Virus record (IMG/VR): IMGVR_UViG_3300043077_000092
Origin: a virus
Taxonomy: Duplodnaviria > Caudoviricetes
Length of the DNA: 64,000 bases
Direction: 5' to 3' (one strand)
Translations under genes and position numbers: made by a program
Shown here: positions 10,412-62,053 of the stretch, in pieces
Numbering within the stretch: position 1 is the first letter of the stretch
Layout of the letters: each line of letters starts with the position of its first letter
The notes under the pieces: model-generated
The model's database searches: none
The model's input: the letters and a program-made list of their open reading frames with translations, nothing else
What the model was told of the DNA's origin: nothing

Positions 10412-12863
10412 TCATCTCACCTCTAACTCTAATTCTGATGATAGAATCACCTCTGCGAACTGGTGCAACTTTTGCACATTTTGCATGTCTGGTAAGAACT
10501 TTGATACTTGATACAGGAACTTCCGTCTTATCTCCAGATTGCATCTGGAATACTAAGGTAGAATCAAACAACCCCTTACTCATAGGGATTACTTTAAACA
10601 GTTCATCACCTTCCTGAAGTCTTGTAAGTTCAAGCATTGTTTGTCGTTTCTTTGTAGCTTTAAATGCCTCATCTAATTCTACTACTTTGGCGAATCCTTT
10701 CTTGGTAATAATGCAAACTTCATTAACACCTCTGCTCGCACAAACTCCCTGAACCTCATCACCATTTTCAAACTTGATAATACGCTGTCCTTTTGTCATC
10801 CTTCCAGTTGATGGAGACATTGATAATCTGAGTATAATACCAAGCCCCATCTTTGTATATACCAATCGTTCATTATCACTATCACTAAGAAGACCCATAA
10901 AGCATACGGCGTCTCCAGTGTTTAATGAGATTGCCCCAATTCTAGTTCTTGTAAGAACGAAATCAGAGAATGGAGTTGCTTTAATCAATCCTCTCTTTGT
11001 AAAGCAATAGAGACGATATTTCTCTGGATTATCCTTAATAGAAGAAATCGAAGTCTTAATTGCAGTAATCGCATTTCCTGTCATGCCAAGTAACTCTTCC
11101 AACGCCATACCTTTGGCGGATGGATCAGTTGCAGGTATCCTGTCAATAGGAAGATAACACCACTCACCACTATCACTACCAATATGAATGTAATCAACTG
11201 ATGTAATGTCATTGAAGTAGGCAACCACATCATCATTTGGTTCTAAGAAGCCAACCCCAATTCCATTAGGGGATAATCTCTTCACATACTTCTTTGTGAT
11301 AGCAACTCTGTAATGGAATATTGGTGTCTCTGTATCTTCGGGTTTGATAATCTGACACTGTCTTGGTTTACCAAACAGTTTCTTTCCCTCTTCCAATTCG
11401 TTCCAGATAATCTGCTTAATCTTGGTTCTTGAGGATAGTATCTCCTCTTTCTCTTTGATGCGGTCATCAATCTCTGCGTAGTTCTTCTTATACTCAGCGA
11501 TACTACCACGTTTCTGGTTCTTTAACTTCATATTAGAAATCAAGTCTGCCTGATAAGATGAGAAACCAAACTCTGTCATCAATCGATGAATGATTTCATC
11601 ATCTGTATTGGATGTCTTTACAACCTCAAATACCTTATCAATAAGTTCCTGACTACCTAACCGAACCAATGCCTCTAAACGATGTTTCTCTTCCTTAATC
11701 TTCAAGAGTTCCTTTGCAATGGTTCTATGCTTAATGTCAATTCTCCAGTCAATCCATGTAAGAATTGCATCCTTTAATGGAACTGAACCAGTATCCGACA
11801 TCATCCTTGTACGGTCTGCATAATTAAGCAAAATCTGAGCATAAGACTTCAGACCAAGCTTTGTATCATTATACAGTTCGTTTATTACATAATCTGGGTC
11901 TACCCCCTTCTTTAAGAGTATCCAGAATTCATTAGTCTCAAGATTAGACTTATCTGAGATATCCTTAATGCCAAGAGGATTGGAATGCTCACGCTGACCT
12001 ATTGCTTTGATAATAGAGTCCATTGTAGTCTTCTCAGGAAACCCATTGCATAAGATATAGTTTCCTTCCTCATGATAGATGAGCTTAGCCCTAATACGAA
12101 CTGTGCCAGAACCAGTTGCACATACATCTTTGATTACTCCATCATCAATGATGTCATATCCTCTCGGACTATCCGGAAAGAGATAAACCCTTTCCATTTC
12201 AGGATGCTCTAACAGAGCCTGTGTTAAACTAAACGCTTCAACCAGATTGAATGGAACTTTAACAAATGAGTTACCCCATGCAATACCAATCGTAAGGTTT
12301 AATAAGAAGTTTGGATACCTTGCAGGTAATACTACAGGTTCGACATCACTTCTCAAGTAGTTCTGTTGCATTTCAATAACTGAACTATCAAATTCCTCAA
12401 AGAAGCATTTCCAAGCATACTGGCTTAATCTTGCATCCAGATAACGAGGAGATGCTGCGTCATCACCTGCAACGGAACCTTCGTTTCCATCCATCTCTAT
12501 ATAGAGTGCATTGTTCTCCCAAGTCTTTGTAATGTTCTCAAATGCCGTTGCAATTGATTGGTCACCGTGAGGGTGATACTTGGTTGTTGCAGGGAGAAAC
12601 TCCAATGCTTTCTGATATCTCTTATCCGGATAAAGTTTCTTATCATGATACATGAACCAAAGCATCTTTCTAACAACAGGGATTAGTCCATCATATAACA
12701 TTGGACAACCTCTTGATACGGATACGTTTGTTCCATATATAATAATTGATTCCTTTGTATGGTCACCAGCATCGATTTCTTCGATATTCTGGTCATACAT
12801 CTCTTGTGTTTCTATAATATCCTGTTTCTTCGGTTTCTTAGAAACCGTTTTCTTCTTTGCCAT
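10401..12863 (-). CDS. gyrA: Type IIA topoisomerase subunit A (GyrA/ParC)
   Basis: DGLIPVVRK, YHPHGD, AASPRYLDARL (catalytic Tyr), GIAWG and C-terminal pinwheel repeats; RBS GGGAGG. Confidence 0.93.
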   Translation of the reverse strand: MAKKKTVSKKPKKQDIIETQEMYDQNIEEIDAGDHTKESIIIYGTNVSVSRGCPMLYDGLIPVVRKMLWFMYHDKKLYPDKRYQKALEFLPATTKYHPHGDQSIATAFENITKTWENNALYIEMDGNEGSVAGDDAASPRYLDARLSQYAWKCFFEEFDSSVIEMQQNYLRSDVEPVVLPARYPNFLLNLTIGIAWGNSFVKVPFNLVEAFSLTQALLEHPEMERVYLFPDSPRGYDIIDDGVIKDVCATGSGTVRIRAKLIYHEEGNYILCNGFPEKTTMDSIIKAIGQREHSNPLGIKDISDKSNLETNEFWILLKKGVDPDYVINELYNDTKLGLKSYAQILLNYADRTRMMSDTGSVPLKDAILTWIDWRIDIKHRTIAKELLKIKEEKHRLEALVRLGSQELIDKVFEVVKTSNTDDEIIHRLMTEFGFSSYQADLISNMKLKNQKRGSIAEYKKNYAEIDDRIKEKEEILSSRTKIKQIIWNELEEGKKLFGKPRQCQIIKPEDTETPIFHYRVAITKKYVKRLSPNGIGVGFLEPNDDVVAYFNDITSVDYIHIGSDSGEWCYLPIDRIPATDPSAKGMALEELLGMTGNAITAIKTSISSIKDNPEKYRLYCFTKRGLIKATPFSDFVLTRTRIGAISLNTGDAVCFMGLLSDSDNERLVYTKMGLGIILRLSMSPSTGRMTKGQRIIKFENGDEVQGVCASRGVNEVCIITKKGFAKVVELDEAFKATKKRQTMLELTRLQEGDELFKVIPMSKGLFDSTLVFQMQSGDKTEVPVSSIKVLTRHAKCAKVAPVRRGDSIIRIRVRGEMNER

Positions 12864-45761: not shown

Positions 45762-46460
45762 ATGAAACAAGAAAAGACTATGCCGGGTATTATATTTGAC
45801 AGAGTTGATGCTCCGCATCCAAGGGTAGATTCAGATAATGCAAACTATTACTTGGAGTTCGATAAGACAGAAGATTACTTTGAGTACTTTGATAATGAGA
45901 TTGCTTTTATCAAGAACGTAGAGAGATTAGTTAGGAAGCATCAGTTTATCAGAGTTACTTATCCGAGATATCTTAAAGAGATAATTGGATTAAAGGAATG
46001 CCAAGTAATGCCCGGAATTAAAGCAGATGACAAAGGAAAAGTATCACTTGAGATGCATCATGGACCTATTCTTACATTGTTTGATACATGTGAGATTGTA
46101 ACAAATGCATATCGTGCAAGGGGTGCTAAAGATGTCAATACATTCGTTATTGCTAATGAAGTAGTTGAGCAACATAGACTAAATCACGTAAGGGTTATGT
46201 TCTTATGTAAGTCAGCTCATCAGAAAGTTCATGATGAAGGGATATTCTTAAATTATCGTCATGGATTTGGAGATACTTTAAAGTTCTTGGAGATTTTCAA
46301 AGATGGAGTTGATAAGAACATGAAAATTAAAATCAATGAATATCTCGCATGGAGTATGGAACATGACTCTACGGATAACAATGTATTCCGTATTGCAGAT
46401 ACAATGCGTGAATGGGGTAATAATGACTTTGACGAATTTGACTCAGTTGCATTAGAATAA
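45762..46460 (+). CDS. HNH-like protein, paralog of 53193-53888
   Basis: LEMHHGP...LCKSAHQKVH. Confidence 0.55.
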   Translation: MKQEKTMPGIIFDRVDAPHPRVDSDNANYYLEFDKTEDYFEYFDNEIAFIKNVERLVRKHQFIRVTYPRYLKEIIGLKECQVMPGIKADDKGKVSLEMHHGPILTLFDTCEIVTNAYRARGAKDVNTFVIANEVVEQHRLNHVRVMFLCKSAHQKVHDEGIFLNYRHGFGDTLKFLEIFKDGVDKNMKIKINEYLAWSMEHDSTDNNVFRIADTMREWGNNDFDEFDSVALE

Positions 46461-46478: not shown

Positions 46479-46994
46479 ATGATAGATACAGTTTGTACCG
46501 TTTTACTTATTTTACTGGTGATGATTTTGATTATCACCAATACTTATCAAATCTTTACAGACTACTATAATAGAAAGAGGATGTACGATGTACAAATCGA
46601 AATGGCTCAGGCTCAACAGATGATGTCAAAAGATATGTCTTGGGATGATGCAAGAAAGATTTTAAATGACATTATATCGTTTACTGTAAGCAACTATATC
46701 ATCAATAATGGTATTACGAAGATGAAAGATGATGAATTGTCTATCATGTGGACAATGATGCTTGGTGATATATGCACTACTGTTGAGATGGCAATGTCTG
46801 ATGAATTAAAACGTCAGATAATGAAGACAGTAACAAGAGAATACTTTAGTCAGTATGTAAAGAATTCTGTACAGATTACAATCGTATATCAACTTGAGAC
46901 TAATAAGAAGAATACGGTTAATACTAGATTGGAACGTATACAAAATGCGTCAGCTTCTCCAAAGACACCTGAAGGAGAAAATACAAAAAAATAA
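46479..46994 (+). CDS. Membrane-anchored hypothetical protein
   Basis: N-terminal hydrophobic helix; RBS GGGAGG. Confidence 0.65.
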   Translation: MIDTVCTVLLILLVMILIITNTYQIFTDYYNRKRMYDVQIEMAQAQQMMSKDMSWDDARKILNDIISFTVSNYIINNGITKMKDDELSIMWTMMLGDICTTVEMAMSDELKRQIMKTVTREYFSQYVKNSVQITIVYQLETNKKNTVNTRLERIQNASASPKTPEGENTKK

Positions 46995-46996
46995 AT

Positions 46997-47052
46997 CAAT
47001 GGGCAGTACGTCACACAAACGCGTGATAATCGTACTGTCCATTGCACTTTTC
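46997..47052. terminator. Bidirectional terminator
   Basis: CAATGGGCAGTACG/CGTACTGTCCATTG with flanking A and T tracts. Confidence 0.7.
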
Positions 47053-47114
47053 TTATATAATCTTTAAATTCAAATTCAAATAATCTTAATTATAAACTCA
47101 TACTCTAAAATTCA

Positions 47115-47625
47115 TTTATCGGGAGTTTACCCGCTTGCTAGAATTGGTGGCAGGTGTAAAGGGTTTATCAATCCCTACGATCACTCTGTAGTTCACACCA
47201 ATAATGCTTTACCGGCGATAGTGCATAACACTAAACATCCGTTTCTACTCAACATCAATATTATTGCAGAGTCACTCCCAATAATACTGGTCAGAAAGGT
47301 CCTTCCAACCATAAGAATTCAACTTCAATTGCAATCTTGTCATATCTTTCACGACGTCTATTCTTCCACGCCGAGGGCGACCGTTTACCAAGTGTCCTTT
47401 TGTCTAATCTAATTAATGACCATCCTTAGATGCACATTCCTACTTTTATTTGTTTTGGTATCTGTTCTCGGCTTATCGGTTCTATGTGGTCTACATACGT
47501 TTAGCACCACCACCCAACGATATCACGTTGTGCATCTTTGGCAGGTGTAAGCATCCCATGCATTGAATAACTTACACTGGTCTTCGATAAGCTATAGTCG
47601 GAGCGACTCTTCTACCAGTCCGAAC
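47115..47625 (-). ncRNA. Large structured non-coding RNA candidate (~510 nt)
   Basis: ORF-poor 650-bp gap with many nested helices; G-U pairs favour the minus strand; 12-nt motif TTACACCTGCCA occurs twice. Confidence 0.65.
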
Positions 47626-47652
47626 ATTTTTTTCCAATTGAGTCCTCTTTTT

Positions 47653-48537
47653 CTATCTGGTTGTTTTCGATTGCGTACCCTTTCCAACTCCTATGGATGC
47701 CATATTCAGCATGGGTACTAAAATGTGATTGAAGTTGTAGCGTATGTCGATAAAATTCATAACCGTTTTGTCGGCTTCTTCAGTTTCGTAGGTCTTCCCC
47801 TCAATTTGCAACTTGAATGTGGAATCCCCATTAAATTCCCGATAACACTCGATTGGCAATCGGAAAAATTTGTAGTCATCAATAACTCTAACGATATACT
47901 TCGTAGCACCCTCATAATCGAACTTTATAAGATACCTCAGGTACCGTTTGATAATAGGTACAATACCGTCCTGATGATGGTTCTCTAACAGTTCATTTCT
48001 GATGCCTTTGAAAGCAATATCGTCATCAAAGCTATTATAATAGACTTCATAAGTTTGGTGTCTGGACTCAAAGTTCGTTCTTAGTTCGTCCTGACCCAAT
48101 AGAAAATAAATATCATACGCGTGTTTCTCTGCGAATTTAATATAGTTACCAAATTCAGTTTGGTTCACATAATGTTTCAGAAACACCGCATCACGCTTGA
48201 TGGAAAAAATATCATCAACGTCAATATCATTCGCATTACAGAATATGATTCTGTACTTTGCAAATAGTCGTTCAAGACGTTTTCCAATATCTCTAACACT
48301 AGGGTCTTTGGAATATTTTAACTTTCCAACTGCCTCGTTTCGCTCAAACCCTTTTGGAATTTTTGAGAGTCTGTCAATCTCGTTTGGTGGAAGAAGCATC
48401 TCTTCCTTTATGATTGAGAATCCTCCATCACTCATATCATACTCAACAATATCCCCGATGTACAAATCCACTGGGTTTGTCCATCGGGGTTTCATTAAGA
48501 GATTTTTTGTTTCCTCTGTAATCAATTGCTGTCCCAC
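47653..48537 (-). CDS. Small divergent family-B polymerase-like protein (palm only, no exonuclease domain)
   Basis: Motif-A-like EYDMSDGGFSII, motif-C-like SIKRDAVF, then FKGI; only 294 aa. Confidence 0.55.
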   Translation of the reverse strand: MGQQLITEETKNLLMKPRWTNPVDLYIGDIVEYDMSDGGFSIIKEEMLLPPNEIDRLSKIPKGFERNEAVGKLKYSKDPSVRDIGKRLERLFAKYRIIFCNANDIDVDDIFSIKRDAVFLKHYVNQTEFGNYIKFAEKHAYDIYFLLGQDELRTNFESRHQTYEVYYNSFDDDIAFKGIRNELLENHHQDGIVPIIKRYLRYLIKFDYEGATKYIVRVIDDYKFFRLPIECYREFNGDSTFKLQIEGKTYETEEADKTVMNFIDIRYNFNHILVPMLNMASIGVGKGTQSKTTR

Positions 48538-49424
48538 TCGATCATTCTTCTTACATCGAGTCTCAGCTCATGGAGGATTTTGTCAACCAAGACTTTCTTG
48601 GAAGTACCCGGAACAATTCGGATTCCTTTACTACGGCAAACATCTTTGATGTCATCCTCGGACCTCTTCATCAGCAGTTCCTTTACCTTGTCTTCCATAT
48701 CCTCTGTGAAACGATTAAAGAAGACTGATAAGAAGTCATTTTCCGTTCCGGGGTCTGCTGCCATAGCCGCTGCTGTTTGTTCCTGTAGTACCAACCGTTC
48801 TCTGATTTCATCAACATTTCCAATGTTATTTACGATGCAGTCAATGTTTTCTCCGTCGAATTCATCAGAAACACCGAACGGTAAAGATTTCACGATTTTC
48901 TCATACTTTGGTTTATCATTATAATAAGTGATTAACCTTTCCAACTCGTCATACATATAACCATGCAACCCGAATTCACTGAGAATGAAATCTCTAATGT
49001 AATCCAAGATTCCGGCTACTGCTTCATAAGAAGCCATGACAATCAACACTTTCTCGCCAAGGTTTACCACCATATCTACGACGGCGCATAAGTCAGTGAA
49101 TGGTTCAACACTCAACAGATGAGAATTGAACATTTCAATGAATCTCTGCTTATCGCCGCCATAACAATACTCCATCGTCTGAGCAGTCGGTCTTAAAGAA
49201 TCAACAAACTCAATGTTGTCATACTTTGAAGCATAACTGATTCCCGTAGATACTCCAGACATAACTCCCTTTGTCTTAAGCGAGCCAGATAACTCATGAC
49301 TCGCTATAAGAATGGAATAGTCTGCAAGGTCGTTATACCTTGCAAACTTCATAATAAGATCATCGAAGTTAATAAAGATTAACGACCCTGTTTTCTCTCC
49401 AATGTTATTCATCGTCTCCGACAT
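48522..49424 (-). CDS. Hypothetical protein, DUF488-like N-terminus and C-terminal SAP/HeH-like motif
   Basis: LRPT...F...FNSHL...VLIV..YE; C-terminal LMKRSEDDIKDVCRSKGI...SKKVLVDKIL. Confidence 0.45.
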   Translation of the reverse strand: MSETMNNIGEKTGSLIFINFDDLIMKFARYNDLADYSILIASHELSGSLKTKGVMSGVSTGISYASKYDNIEFVDSLRPTAQTMEYCYGGDKQRFIEMFNSHLLSVEPFTDLCAVVDMVVNLGEKVLIVMASYEAVAGILDYIRDFILSEFGLHGYMYDELERLITYYNDKPKYEKIVKSLPFGVSDEFDGENIDCIVNNIGNVDEIRERLVLQEQTAAAMAADPGTENDFLSVFFNRFTEDMEDKVKELLMKRSEDDIKDVCRSKGIRIVPGTSKKVLVDKILHELRLDVRRMIEWDSN

Positions 49425-50985
49425 TCAAATTCATCTCCTCTCCAACCTTAATCGGTGTCCCATTTATAAATATCTTTGACTCTTCAGACGTTGATGAGGT
49501 TCTATCTTCATAAGCCAACTTGGTATCCTCGGCGGAAGATTCCTCAACCTGATCAACCTCATCATGCTCAGGAATATCCTCTGTAGGAACATTCTTTGGC
49601 TCCTGTGTATCAACGTCTTCTTCAACGGTTGGTTTGTTCTCCTGCTTGGTTTCCTGTTCCGGCTTCTTATTCTCTACAGGAGCCACAGGCTTCTCATCCT
49701 GAGCAGTTACCGTATACGTTGTCGTCTTCTGAGGCTTACTGGTTACCTGACGATTACGAATCTGGTTCAAATACTCATCTTCCTGACTTCTCTGATCTTC
49801 CTGATACTTCTCTTCAGCAGCTTTCTGACTCTGACGTGTCTTCTGAAGTAATGCAGAGAATCCGCTTTCCATATCGAAGTCATCATCTTCCTCATTCATA
49901 TTTGGTTCGGGTTCTTCCGCTTCCTCACCCAGATGGGCATATAATCTCATCACCGGAGGCTTTCCGTACATATAATTCTCCTGATAATTCTCAGTGTAAA
50001 CCGGCTCGGGAATATTCTCCTCTTCACTCAGGTTCTCAAACAATACCTTCTTAGCCTCTTCATCCTGTGGGTTCTTTGCGATCTTTACCAAAGCGGCAAA
50101 TCTTTCTGTTAGTCCATTCATATCTTCTTCTCCTTCCAAACTGTTTAACATTACCTTCATCATCATATCCTCCTTAAGTTTCTGATAACGATAATTGTCT
50201 CCGGGATTATCGATGACATATATATTATCCCCAACTAGCTTGTCACCGAACGTCTCGATATCTTTTTGCTTAACTCCCTCAGGGAGTTTAATCGATGATG
50301 CCTTTTGTTCTGCTATCATCTTAATATCTACTTCTTTTCCTTGTATCCTTTTTCTTTCGTTATACGTATACCTCGCTTTACATCCGCTTCGGTCAGTACA
50401 CATTAACACGTCATACGAGGAATCGTAGGTTAATACGCTACCGCATCTACTACAAGTAAACAGATTTTCTGTTGCTCGATGGCAATAAGCGTAATCTAAG
50501 ATTACTGGTTTTCCATTACGGATTCCCCAGTTGGTCATATTCTTTTTGACATATCCGACATCACCAAGAAGATAATCTTGACATAACGTATCTAACACTT
50601 TTCGGATTTCGTATCGATACAGTTCCCACTTTTGAGAGGTATTAATAACCTCTACACATTCGGCAATCAAAATATAACCATTAGTCTCAAAAGACTTAGT
50701 GACATACGGTTGAAGTTCAGGACTGAGGCTATACTCTATCAGGTTATCCTGATATCCCTGTTCATCCATTGCAAACTTTACCGCATACCCATCAATCTGG
50801 AGTACGATTCGATTCGTGGCACCACCAAGAATCTCAAAATCAATACCCCAAGTATAAAGTAAATTTCCAAGTGTAATCATTTTTTGAGCATTCGACTCTA
50901 TACGTTTGGTATCACAGATTGCAGCGATATACCGCAACTGCTCATCATTGAACATGATTTTCAATTTGCTCCTGACTGTTATCAT
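49405..50985 (-). CDS. Protein-kinase-like enzyme with zinc ribbon and acidic tail
   Basis: LGGATNRIV, AVKFA, E, DVG...NWG, ILDYAY; CSRC...C...C. Confidence 0.75.
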   Translation of the reverse strand: MITVRSKLKIMFNDEQLRYIAAICDTKRIESNAQKMITLGNLLYTWGIDFEILGGATNRIVLQIDGYAVKFAMDEQGYQDNLIEYSLSPELQPYVTKSFETNGYILIAECVEVINTSQKWELYRYEIRKVLDTLCQDYLLGDVGYVKKNMTNWGIRNGKPVILDYAYCHRATENLFTCSRCGSVLTYDSSYDVLMCTDRSGCKARYTYNERKRIQGKEVDIKMIAEQKASSIKLPEGVKQKDIETFGDKLVGDNIYVIDNPGDNYRYQKLKEDMMMKVMLNSLEGEEDMNGLTERFAALVKIAKNPQDEEAKKVLFENLSEEENIPEPVYTENYQENYMYGKPPVMRLYAHLGEEAEEPEPNMNEEDDDFDMESGFSALLQKTRQSQKAAEEKYQEDQRSQEDEYLNQIRNRQVTSKPQKTTTYTVTAQDEKPVAPVENKKPEQETKQENKPTVEEDVDTQEPKNVPTEDIPEHDEVDQVEESSAEDTKLAYEDRTSSTSEESKIFINGTPIKVGEEMNLNVGDDE

Positions 50986-52271: not shown

Positions 52272-53096
52272 TTAATATATATCTATCTTTCCGAATCTAT
52301 TTTCCTCTCTAAATATAGAATTGAGGCAGATAATTCCATTGGTATCAAGACGAATGTCATGTTGATATCTTGACTGGAATAATGTCCATCTATCAGAGCT
52401 TGTTCTGAAATTCATTCTATGTTCCCGCTTAGAATACCATACCATATGGTTATATTCATAATTAGAGAACGCAGGAATATCCATATCTGGGTTGGTGACT
52501 TCTTTAAAAATCAGAATACGCATAGGATGAGCATCAAAACTTATATCATCTATGGTGGTATTATTCGGTATGACATTCCTCATGAACCGATACTGATAAT
52601 AGAGTAGATCTGATCCTGAGTCCTTGGATGTTTCAAGTGAATATTGTCCAAGGACATACTCAAGAATGTCAAATAACTCTGCAAGTGTCGGTGAATCAGA
52701 AATCTGGGTTAATGGGTTACACTCTGAATTTTTACTGAGAACTGGATGTGCGTTAATGAGTGAATGAATAATTGCTGAGTAGATAACGTAATATGGATTA
52801 CGTGAAGCGTATATCCAATCTTCCTCTTTAATATATCCACCCGGAAGTGAAACAGTTCCCGTCTCATCGTTTTCAAGTAACCATATTCCGTCATGAGTAG
52901 GATTGGTCAAAAGTAAATCACACTCGAAACTTACCTTCTCAGGAACCATCATCTGGAACCCTTCGGGATAAGTATGGGCTACCATTTTACCGTTTATAAA
53001 TAACTCTGGATTTAACAACGGTGTCATTACATCCGTTGCTCTTCCGGGGCTAAACTTTAGTTCAAAATCTTTTCTCTTTAAATAAATATCTCTCAT
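52272..53096 (-). CDS. Hypothetical protein, possible degenerate Nudix fold
   Basis: IWLL...SLPGGYIKEED without the REUxEE part of the Nudix box. Confidence 0.45.
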   Translation of the reverse strand: MRDIYLKRKDFELKFSPGRATDVMTPLLNPELFINGKMVAHTYPEGFQMMVPEKVSFECDLLLTNPTHDGIWLLENDETGTVSLPGGYIKEEDWIYASRNPYYVIYSAIIHSLINAHPVLSKNSECNPLTQISDSPTLAELFDILEYVLGQYSLETSKDSGSDLLYYQYRFMRNVIPNNTTIDDISFDAHPMRILIFKEVTNPDMDIPAFSNYEYNHMVWYSKREHRMNFRTSSDRWTLFQSRYQHDIRLDTNGIICLNSIFREENRFGKIDIY

Positions 53097-53192: not shown

Positions 53193-53888
53193 TTAAGCGA
53201 ATGATTTAAGCATCGATGGATCTACTCCATCTTCCATGTTAGTCTCTCCGTCTACATCCAAATACACAAACTGCACATAAAGGATCTTGAGTGCTTCTCT
53301 TAATTCCTCTGGGTGAGCTTTGAATCTTCTTGACTCCTGTACTTTCTCATCTAAAGCCATGAGTAATTCATCAGGAATCCAATCGTAATATCGTTTTGTA
53401 AACTCAACGAATCTACCATATACGCACCATAATGGTACGGGTAACTGGTTGTCGTGTACCAATTGATGGCACGTAACTGAGAGTGGGATTAAACCAACAA
53501 GTCCAGAGTAGTGGAGTCTCATAACTTCCTCTGCTACTTTGAGTTCGTCGATATAACCAATCTGATCTTCATGCTTACGCATTACGACATCAACGATAGA
53601 AAAAAGAGTGAATGGCGAATGATGAATTTCAATCATGCCCTTCTTTTTTCCACCTTTGAATTCATTCATGAACGTACATTCATTCATATCAACGTACTTA
53701 TGAAGATAGGTGATTAAGTCCGTATATTCAAGAGAACTTCTGCAATACGATTCGATCTGTTTTGTGAGTTTCACTCTCTGTTTGTCTGTTGTAGTAACAG
53801 GGAGTCTCGGTATAATAATTGGTTTATCAATATGAACAGTCTTAACGGACGATTGGTTTAAACTTGTTTCTTTTGGTGGAACTCTCAT
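53193..53888 (-). CDS. HNH-like protein, paralog of 45762-46460
   Basis: IEIHHSPFTL...LSVTCHQLVH. Confidence 0.55.
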   Translation of the reverse strand: MRVPPKETSLNQSSVKTVHIDKPIIIPRLPVTTTDKQRVKLTKQIESYCRSSLEYTDLITYLHKYVDMNECTFMNEFKGGKKKGMIEIHHSPFTLFSIVDVVMRKHEDQIGYIDELKVAEEVMRLHYSGLVGLIPLSVTCHQLVHDNQLPVPLWCVYGRFVEFTKRYYDWIPDELLMALDEKVQESRRFKAHPEELREALKILYVQFVYLDVDGETNMEDGVDPSMLKSFA

Positions 53889-60266: not shown

Positions 60267-60357
60267 TCTTTACGCTCCTTTGACAAAAAAGAGACAAGGC
60301 ACGTTGACCGTACCTTGCCTCCTCTTATTATCGGTAGCGACTATTTGCTTACTAGTA

Positions 60358-61086
60358 TTAATAGCTTCTGCCGCCGCCGTTATTGTTTCCACCGCCGTTA
60401 CCGTTGTTAACTCTACGGAACAGATCCTGCTCGATGCGGGCATAGTTGATGCCTGAAGACTTGCCCTTCTTGCTTCCGTTCCCTGCGATGTATTTCATGT
60501 AGAGCATTGTATAGTTGCTGGTGTTGGCAATCGGAGTCATCTGGAGAATGATGTAATCATACTGATCGTTCGGCATAATACCGAGAATCAAGCACATCAC
60601 TGAACTGAAATCCAGCTCCAAGGATGCTACGTTTGTTCCCTGAACTGCTCTCAGGTTCATCATCGGCTTTCCGTTGTCTGCATTTACTCTGCATAATGGC
60701 TTCATAACAGATTCGAATTCCTTGGAAGTTCCAAAGATTCCTGCTCCACCACTACCAGAACCGGCAGTCTGCAACAGAGAGATTCTTCCTTCATTGGTCT
60801 TGTTGGCTCCGCCCTTACCACGATAATATACATTACCACCGGCTCCACCTACGGCGAAATAAGCTGTCACGGTTACGTCGGACACACCCGTTGAGTTACG
60901 AGCGAGCTTCGGTGTAATGATAATCTTATCCATCTCAGGAATACCATAGGTTGTTCTGAACTCGTCGAGCAGCTTCTCTGCCAAGCCCTGTGTTGTGTCA
61001 TTGAATACTTTGCCTATTTCCGGTGTTTCGATTGCCGGAGCCAATCCTGCAATTAAGTCGGCTCCATATTTGTTGTTGTTTGACAT
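60358..61086 (-). CDS. Hypothetical protein with G/N-rich tail
   Basis: RBS AGGAGG, TATATTAA upstream, terminator downstream. Confidence 0.7.
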   Translation of the reverse strand: MSNNNKYGADLIAGLAPAIETPEIGKVFNDTTQGLAEKLLDEFRTTYGIPEMDKIIITPKLARNSTGVSDVTVTAYFAVGGAGGNVYYRGKGGANKTNEGRISLLQTAGSGSGGAGIFGTSKEFESVMKPLCRVNADNGKPMMNLRAVQGTNVASLELDFSSVMCLILGIMPNDQYDYIILQMTPIANTSNYTMLYMKYIAGNGSKKGKSSGINYARIEQDLFRRVNNGNGGGNNNGGGRSY

Positions 61087-61225
61087 GATCATGTCCTCCT
61101 TTAAAAGATTATTGTGTTTAATACTAATTGAGATGACTAGTATTCTCAATCAGCAGTTTAATATATAAACAAAATGCAGATTGACGAACAAGAGTCTGCA
61201 TATTGTATATACAGAGAGTACCGAA

Positions 61226-62053
61226 TTATTCTACTGTATCCATAAGTTTATTTATTAACGAGTTGTAGAGATAATTCATTTGTGTAGATACCATTTCTTC
61301 CCACTCTCTATTGGGTGGGCAATATACGGGACCGATGTCCCAAACTGAGAGTAAATCTTTTTCCACATAAACCCTATTGAGCATACCACCCCACCAAAGG
61401 GTGTTATCACCTAAATCTGCCCAACTTTTGTTGCTGATTTCTATGCCGTAGTAGTTATGCCTACTACTAGCTCTAACAGACGTTCCTGATCCTGATTCAA
61501 TTGTGGATACGGACATTGCAAATATGGCATTAATTCCGTATGTCTGCTCAAGATTCATTAGTGTTTGTTCGTATCCTTCCCACCAAGTTCCCTCAGTGAG
61601 CAATTTGTAATCCTCTATATCATTTAATCCCGTGACTCTGGAAATATCGCTTGTATCGCAGACAATTGAGTTAATATAGTCAATCCTTTCTTGTCTTGCA
61701 ATCTCAAGTTGGCGAAGTCTCTCCTGCTCCTCTTCCTCTGCTATTTGTGAAGCGATTTCTTCTTCCAGAGTCAATTGTATTCGAGCCTGCTCAGCAATTT
61801 CCTGTTGTACAATAGCATCTTCTTCTACGTTAGGGATAGTAGTAGAAACAACTACTGCTGTTGATGAATTTTGGTTTGCTGAATAGGTGAGTGTTTTGTG
61901 GGTTGAATTTATTAATGGTTTAATAGACATCGTATAAGATGTCGGGTTTAATGACGATGCAAAAATAATCGACGCTAAAAGTATCAATATTGCCAAATGA
62001 TCAGTTTTGACACATGGTCGTTGTCGTTGTATTGACGCTATATAGGTTCGCAT
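61226..62053 (-). CDS. Exported glucosaminidase/lysozyme-like peptidoglycan hydrolase
   Basis: N-terminal hydrophobic helix, coiled coil, then YGINAIFAMSVSTIESGSGTS...HNYYGI...YCPP (GH73-like). Confidence 0.7.
   Translation of the reverse strand: MRTYIASIQRQRPCVKTDHLAILILLASIIFASSLNPTSYTMSIKPLINSTHKTLTYSANQNSSTAVVVSTTIPNVEEDAIVQQEIAEQARIQLTLEEEIASQIAEEEEQERLRQLEIARQERIDYINSIVCDTSDISRVTGLNDIEDYKLLTEGTWWEGYEQTLMNLEQTYGINAIFAMSVSTIESGSGTSVRASSRHNYYGIEISNKSWADLGDNTLWWGGMLNRVYVEKDLLSVWDIGPVYCPPNREWEEMVSTQMNYLYNSLINKLMDTVE

Follow-up and report, generated by a model that had tools for sequence, protein, structure and literature searches.

What fills the gap of 658 nt that separates a minus-strand gene of 294 aa (its end at 47653) from a convergent gene of 176 aa (its end at 46994) in the genome of an uncultured phage, and what might it do there? 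The original prediction placed an ornate non-coding RNA of about 510 nt at this site, at 47115-47625 of the window (the whole 64,000-nt stretch of DNA that was analyzed). The window is part of a virus record of 220,062 bases (93% complete), which encodes a subunit of a multisubunit RNA polymerase, virion proteins, and the divergent polymerase (divDNApol) typical of phiKZ/AR9-like jumbo phages. The source is an uncultured, AR9-like gut jumbo phage of ~220 kb. Strong AAGGAG ribosome sites, together with kinship to phages of Bacillus, Listeria, and Staphylococcus, suggest a host among the Firmicutes. In this 220-kb, 93%-complete record, ARAGORN detects zero tRNA or tmRNA genes, and no replication-origin-like skew switch is found at the RNA locus.

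Other regions of the record deserve mention in their own right. Long gaps without an ORF of at least 80 aa also occur at G000:C1:214812-215465, 10584-11563, 60321-62033, and 98839-99750; the first of these has a raised G+C content (0.40) and might hold another RNA. Within the window, two proteins of ~230 aa (45762-46460, plus strand, and 53193-53888, minus strand) are apparent paralogues, the first of which matches phrog_12252, and their His-rich motifs recall what we take to be those of HNH nucleases. A 526-aa protein (49405-50985, minus strand), encoded in the same operon as the 294-aa protein and matching phrog_4301 (unknown function), has an N-terminal part that appears kinase-like by eye, four Cys arranged as two pairs, and a long acidic tail.

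Comparative evidence for the RNA

Single-sequence folding gives only modest z-scores (-1.7 on the minus strand and -2.5 on the plus strand), so the proof of the RNA is comparative. The upstream 294-aa protein, hereafter called mini-PolB, was used as bait (56 homologues), and the DNA flanking its homologues was compared. The full RNA lies at the same place in ten other phage loci, with lengths of 460-600 nt and identities of 49-85%. Covariation among homologues, proposed as a check with the original prediction, turned out in its favor: in the 11 mutually related loci with the full RNA, both partners change in 64 of the 101 modelled pairs, against 37.8 expected and with 0 of 500 shuffles reaching 64, in a structure derived from the same sequences on which the pairs were counted. 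Paired cells make up 86.6% of this 101-pair model, compared with 73.7% for shuffles and, for slid controls, 34-43%; these totals include one helix that was dropped later, and the per-helix counts (Table 1) weigh more than they do. No held-out homologue was obtained, the last locus added (L216) being one without the RNA.

The alignments show a conserved, multi-pseudoknotted fold on the minus strand, present as a single copy in the genome and at a fixed position. The existence of a conserved structured RNA at 47661-47120 is practically certain, and, judged by sequence comparison, this RNA is real, large, ornate, and uncatalogued, with a fold supported by covariation in 11-12 relatives. It spans several hundred nucleotides, has many covarying helices and several pseudoknots, and contains no conserved reading frame. 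The minus strand, correctly named in the original prediction, is assigned because G-U outnumbers A-C by 43 to 10 over the core pairs of 11 homologues. The predicted boundary, by contrast, had to be corrected: the 5' end was moved ~36 nt earlier, to 47661, because the first four-base strand of helix P0 pairs into a loop across loci. The 5' helix overlaps the last codons of the mini-PolB gene. Synonymous conservation does not rise at the 3' end of this gene, which argues that the RNA does not reach far into it.

The slot behind mini-PolB differs among loci. It holds the full RNA in 11 of them, and partial or chimeric versions in L085 (2350-2960), where only the 5' knot is kept, and in L093 (2058-2550), where only the 3' domain and a GUGCAC-capped hairpin are kept. 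A 121-aa gene occupies the slot in L216, and AR9, LPJP1, and L019 have nothing in it, the protein being kept with no gap behind. The more distant loci L034-L037 (mini-PolB identity 38-42%) have gaps of 400-550 nt filled with other hairpin-rich sequence, which gives no match to the RNA of the window. They share a hairpin (L034:3300-3340, L035:3570-3610, L036/L037:3470-3510) with the palindromic loop hexamers GUCGAC, CUGCAG, and CUCGAG, whose inner two bases switch, a pattern that has served to argue for intermolecular kissing in GOLLD. A blastn search of the RNA against 50,697 phage records gave no match, DNA pattern scans of viral and genome collections returned only loci already in the set or chance matches, and an HMM of the RNA matched none of the remaining loci from these scans.

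Architecture of the fold

Table 1. Features of the RNA locus, in window coordinates.
Feature	Position	Strand	Remarks
Large structured non-coding RNA, ~542 nt	47120..47661	-	Alignments and pair counts; single copy in genome; contigs from four RNA libraries
5' knot, three mutually crossing helices	47597..47661	-	94% of cells paired; double changes in 8 of 16 pairs
P0	47661-57/47618-14	-	Helix of 5' knot
P1a	47644-40/47609-05	-	Helix of 5' knot
P1b	47625-19/47602-597	-	Helix of 5' knot
Domain 2	47471..47592	-	Closing helix 47592-85/47478-71, 98% paired, 4 double-change pairs
Domain-2 stem	47577-47545	-	Capped by self-complementary hexamer 47563-47558
Domain-2 further hairpin	47530-47515	-	
Domain 3, double pseudoknot	47339..47460	-	Two helices, each 98% paired
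Two tandem small-loop hairpins	47259..47311	-	Double changes in 9 of 10 and in 6 of 11 pairs; z -3.1
3' domain	47120..47246	-	AGAAA, helix 47241-47213, GUAAA, variable arm 47207-47137, presumed T-loop-like hairpin 47133-47120
12-mer copy 1	47539..47550	-	Diverged 3' strand of conserved domain-2 stem; sequence varies freely
12-mer copy 2	47148..47159	-	In genome-specific insert of variable 3' arm
Candidate dedicated promoter TATATTAA	48144-48137	-	Predicted start 48130; inside mini-PolB gene, 476 nt upstream of RNA
TATATTAA motif ahead of four-gene run ending in mini-PolB	52272..52279	-	Presumably active
Long hairpin with T-runs on both sides	46982..47059		z -5.7; between RNA and convergent 176-aa gene
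Mini-PolB, 294-aa stand-alone family-B polymerase-like protein	47653..48537	-	Palm, fingers, thumb; no exonuclease

In the 5' knot, the first four-base strand of P0 and its partner in the loop are CCAG/CUGG in nine loci and CUGG/CCAG in two that are related, while a single locus has CUAG/CUAG; measured from where the stop codon ends, the offsets are -24, -8, 0, and +1. Stop-codon read-through or frameshifting by the knot was considered and rejected, because the knot stands at four different offsets from the stop. A long-range pair (47617-12/47258-53) was dropped in favor of pairing between this loop and the 5' CCAG, where the double changes are cleaner; a second one (47514-11/47223-20) is 91% paired, competes with local pairing, and is a weak candidate.

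The loop hexamer of domain 2 is AUGCAU in five and GUGCAC in six of the 11 loci; it is thus palindromic in all of them, with its inner four bases invariant, and is flanked by an unpaired A and G in five. L085 has a GNRA-like loop where the others have the palindrome. In domain 3, one helix joins 47460-57 to the loop at 47389-86, with all four pairs changing on both sides, and the other joins 47420-16, in the loop of hairpin 47432-47406, to 47343-39, with one counted double change. The AGAAA and GUAAA joiners of the 3' domain are invariant and flank its helix, and the final hairpin, which we take to be T-loop-like by resemblance, has a loop of 7 nt in L020, L083, and L093. L092 (2440-2620) and L093 (2340-2520) each contain two copies of a small module of this domain, a bulge with a short helix that ends in UACC, and the module survives in L085, a distribution which suggests an independent tertiary or protein-binding motif.

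The helices listed in the original prediction are all present in the sequence, as are both copies of a 12-mer that had been read as a duplicated module, and three of these helices (47545-51/47571-77, 47256-66/47279-89, and 47120-47133) are conserved in homologues. The others (47339-47355, 47576-81/47614-19, and 47153-60/47192-99) are not, and the same is true of the 9-bp helix 47428-36/47529-37, a perfect inverted repeat of a length that arises in 607 of 2000 shuffles. As a functional module, the 12-mer did not survive the comparison: 0 homologues carry the duplication, shuffling the region yields a repeat of this kind 59 times in 5000, and 23 of 406 genome tiles of the same size contain one. 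The duplication is explained by chance or by a recent local duplication and is incidental. That this RNA family does undergo local duplication is seen in the middle of the L083 RNA, where a hairpin is partly copied in an exact direct repeat of 25 nt. The long-range pseudoknot proposed between GGTGGTG and TGCCACC needs the genome-specific insert and is not conserved; the pseudoknots that are supported are different ones.

Transcription of the locus

The motif TATATTAA, one copy of which is the candidate dedicated promoter of the RNA, shows enrichment ahead of genes on their sense strand (17 vs. 2). At 29 intergenic sites, it faces a co-oriented gene in 26 cases, with a purine at +7 in 25 and T at +6 in 21, and the AR9 early promoter shares its geometry (PMC5312081). 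The codons at the internal site show the highest synonymous conservation in the mini-PolB gene (rank 1 of 189 windows along it). They are TAT and ATT in 11 of 11 RNA-bearing loci, the latter a choice of Ile codon that occurs in only 1-6 of about 10 at other conserved Ile columns of the protein; the base at +7 is A under three different amino acids, and T is absent from +6. The motif is lost in L216, which has no RNA, and in L093, which has a partial one, and it is weakened in L085; across the aligned loci, it tracks the RNA and not the protein. Conservation supports this internal promoter well, and it is presumably active, and active early. No gene follows on the strand before the terminator, so the RNA is its likely product. 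An AR9-type late promoter at the 5' end of the RNA was rejected: it matches in the window and is not conserved.

Downstream of the RNA, the long hairpin with T-runs on both sides is, from its sequence, likely a bidirectional terminator, and terminator-like hairpins follow the RNA in eight homologues.

In addition, parts of a 2.2-kb query occur in 17 gut RNA libraries, five of which contain roughly a quarter of its words. At an identity of at least 99%, the RNA is covered by contigs from four gut RNA libraries; these libraries are maybe from one sampling campaign and may hold DNA, and the contigs are silent on strand, ends, and level. They extend 120-150 nt or more into the mini-PolB gene and so mark no 5' end, and one of them extends across the RNA and the mini-PolB gene into the gene after it. 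Between 45900 and 47100, none of the four runs has contig cover; near the locus, three of the runs cover only 47105-47810, and two stop at 47147-47148, which, for contigs, allows no inference on ends or level. Runs X1 and X7 contain contigs of a related strain's version of the RNA (window 47437-47532), whose three listed changes either lie in an unpaired joiner or preserve a pair as G-U. Small-share matches in freshwater DNA runs are no evidence of habitat.

Known RNA families and the role of the RNA

No Rfam family matches the window at gathering score, none matches locally to an E-value of 10, and none to an E-value of 5 in 15 related loci; ROOL, GOLLD, OLE, and introns, for which an Infernal search had been suggested, are all without a match. 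No description of the RNA was found in the literature, the supplementary models of PMC10690425 (29-151 nt) lying outside the comparison. Judged by the tests run, the RNA belongs neither to ROOL, GOLLD, or OLE nor to RNase P, tmRNA, or the introns of group I or II. The initial comparison with ROOL, GOLLD, and OLE therefore stands as an analogy of size and complexity and falls as a statement of membership, given the lack of an Rfam match. Like ROOL and GOLLD, the RNA is large, phage-borne, and multiply pseudoknotted, with inserts that vary around a conserved core (ROOL env-120 measures 659 nt, and many GOLLD RNAs exceed 800; PMC12286853; 10.1101/2024.12.08.627333). It differs from them in having no sequence or model match, in its helix order, and in being confined so far to one jumbo-phage clade, behind the mini-PolB gene. 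Their frequent location beside tRNA islands, typical rather than strictly defining, also finds no counterpart in this genome, which has no tRNA genes. OLE is likewise ornate, at ~600 nt, and dimerizes partly through a palindromic kissing loop, but it is a chromosomal RNA of Gram-positive bacteria held in a membrane-bound protein complex.

The invariably palindromic loop of domain 2 may be an indirect sign of a homo-oligomer of the ROOL/GOLLD/OLE type. Palindrome switching served as evidence of intermolecular kissing in OLE and GOLLD (10.1101/2024.12.08.627333); here, however, the change touches the outer pair only, and an ordinary closing base pair explains it equally well. Another analogy is offered by the flavivirus xrRNAs: the extreme 5' nucleotides of the RNA lie in a knot that could halt 5'-3' decay, including decay by the bacterial RNase J1, which a folded viral RNA can block (PMC5760640). 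The present knot differs in its three crossing helices, with no three-way junction ring shown, and in belonging to a DNA phage, and its resistance is predicted by analogy.

The reading that we favor, with a probability of about 0.5, is that of an early accessory RNA that stands alone, works in trans, belongs to one clade of AR9-like gut jumbo phages, is trimmed out of a longer transcript, and serves as a scaffold or decoy. Early transcription by the phage's own RNA polymerase would start at the promoter inside the mini-PolB gene, presumably with read-through from the operon in addition, and run as far as the terminator hairpin. Hypothetically, a leader of ~470 nt would then be removed and the 5' knot would halt 5'-3' decay, so that a stable RNA of ~540 nt would be left. 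During takeover or counter-defense, the folded RNA might bind a host or phage factor as its scaffold or decoy, a role modelled on proposals for ROOL, GOLLD, and OLE. Such a role in trans is hypothetical, and by the same analogy the RNA possibly forms a dimer through its palindromic loop.

A role tied to the neighboring protein has to be weighed against this. The structure model of mini-PolB (pLDDT 89.9) aligns with RB69 gp43 (Z 10.4, rmsd 4.7, 251 aligned), and Foldseek matches it to an archaeal PolB (E 1.9e-7). Both of its acidic motifs lie in one chain, whereas those of the phiKZ replicative enzyme are split over two large subunits (PMC13648687), and the replicative divDNApol subunit has its gene at a different place in the genome; for these two reasons, mini-PolB was rejected as a split replicative subunit and is an extra mini-polymerase. 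Both motifs are also kept in its homologues in AR9 (BI022_gp238; L211:2998-3765) and LPJP1 (L212:3007-3801), which are hypothetical proteins. That the RNA is a cofactor, primer, or template of mini-PolB, in an RNP that could prime replication, would suit its constant place directly behind the gene, co-oriented and with a 5' helix overlapping or adjoining the stop; it would also suit a phage group without known primases (PMC7824862; PMC13648687) and the other hairpin-rich sequence in the L034-L037 slot. It is nevertheless unlikely: AR9, LPJP1, and L019 do without the gap, a model of the 5' domain, which recovers three positive controls, has no match in five distant genomes, and a conserved single-stranded template region is not evident. 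In L216, whose mini-PolB is 66% identical and in the protein tree nests among those of RNA-bearing loci, the slot is taken by a protein gene; 2.9 kb of this genome are covered, and an RNA copy elsewhere in it is possible. Since AR9, LPJP1, and L216 keep the protein without the RNA, the latter looks like accessory cargo in an exchangeable slot and not like an obligatory polymerase subunit. A tie of the RNA to the polymerase is unsupported, and the broader scheme of an RNP polymerase/primer system, in which mini-PolB with a different RNA in each clade would supply the priming absent from phiKZ/AR9-like phages, is a long shot.

Several pseudoknots and invariant unpaired residues might also point to a new or strongly diverged ribozyme, whether RNase P-like, intron-derived, or self-excising from the operon mRNA, and the AGAAA/helix/GUAAA element of the 3' domain presumably bears a superficial likeness to the T-loop strands of the bacterial RNase P specificity domain. 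This element has no model match, however, and patterns for RNase P CR-I/CR-V (the P4 pseudoknot), group II domain V, the 3' strand of group I P7, and the hammerhead are absent from 11 of 11 loci, in line with the original prediction, which had seen no hallmarks of RNase P, tmRNA, or group II domain V. A group I intron interrupts a gene, and its P3/P7 core, which has a G-binding site, encloses a P4-P6 domain; here, the upstream gene ends with a stop, and only ~35 nt separate the 5' strands of the two pseudoknots. The lack of tRNA genes also speaks against a ribozyme, as does the separate retention of the 5' knot in L085 and the 3' domain in L093, which argues against a single catalytic core; a ribozyme is about as unlikely as a polymerase partner. 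No more probable than a ribozyme is a cis-acting 3' element that stabilizes or regulates the mini-PolB operon mRNA. The position of the RNA between the last stop codon and the terminator, and the contig that joins it to the operon, would fit such an element, but a 540-nt multi-domain fold, a conserved internal promoter serving only the RNA region, and the loss of the RNA from a close relative (L216) that keeps the operon argue against it. Most doubtful of these is a tRNA- or tmRNA-like mimic engaging ribosomes or tRNA-targeting defense nucleases: what presumably resembles a T-arm in the 3' hairpin, with its 7-nt loops in three loci, comes without an acceptor stem, a conserved 3' CCA end, a canonical T-arm, or a conserved (tag) reading frame, ARAGORN finds nothing, and the CCACCA of the window lies in a genome-specific insert.

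To our knowledge, the large and highly structured RNAs of bacteria or phages fall into only a few known classes, and those with a known function are mostly ribozymes or core machines. The family represented by the RNA described here is uncatalogued; its ends are defined, it has a candidate early promoter, and its three-helix knot is unusual. Conservation of the mini-PolB ahead of it, itself uncharacterized, extends to Bacillus phage AR9, in which the annotation is that of a hypothetical protein. If the early promoter is true, the RNA would have a role in host takeover or replication, and not in virion assembly.
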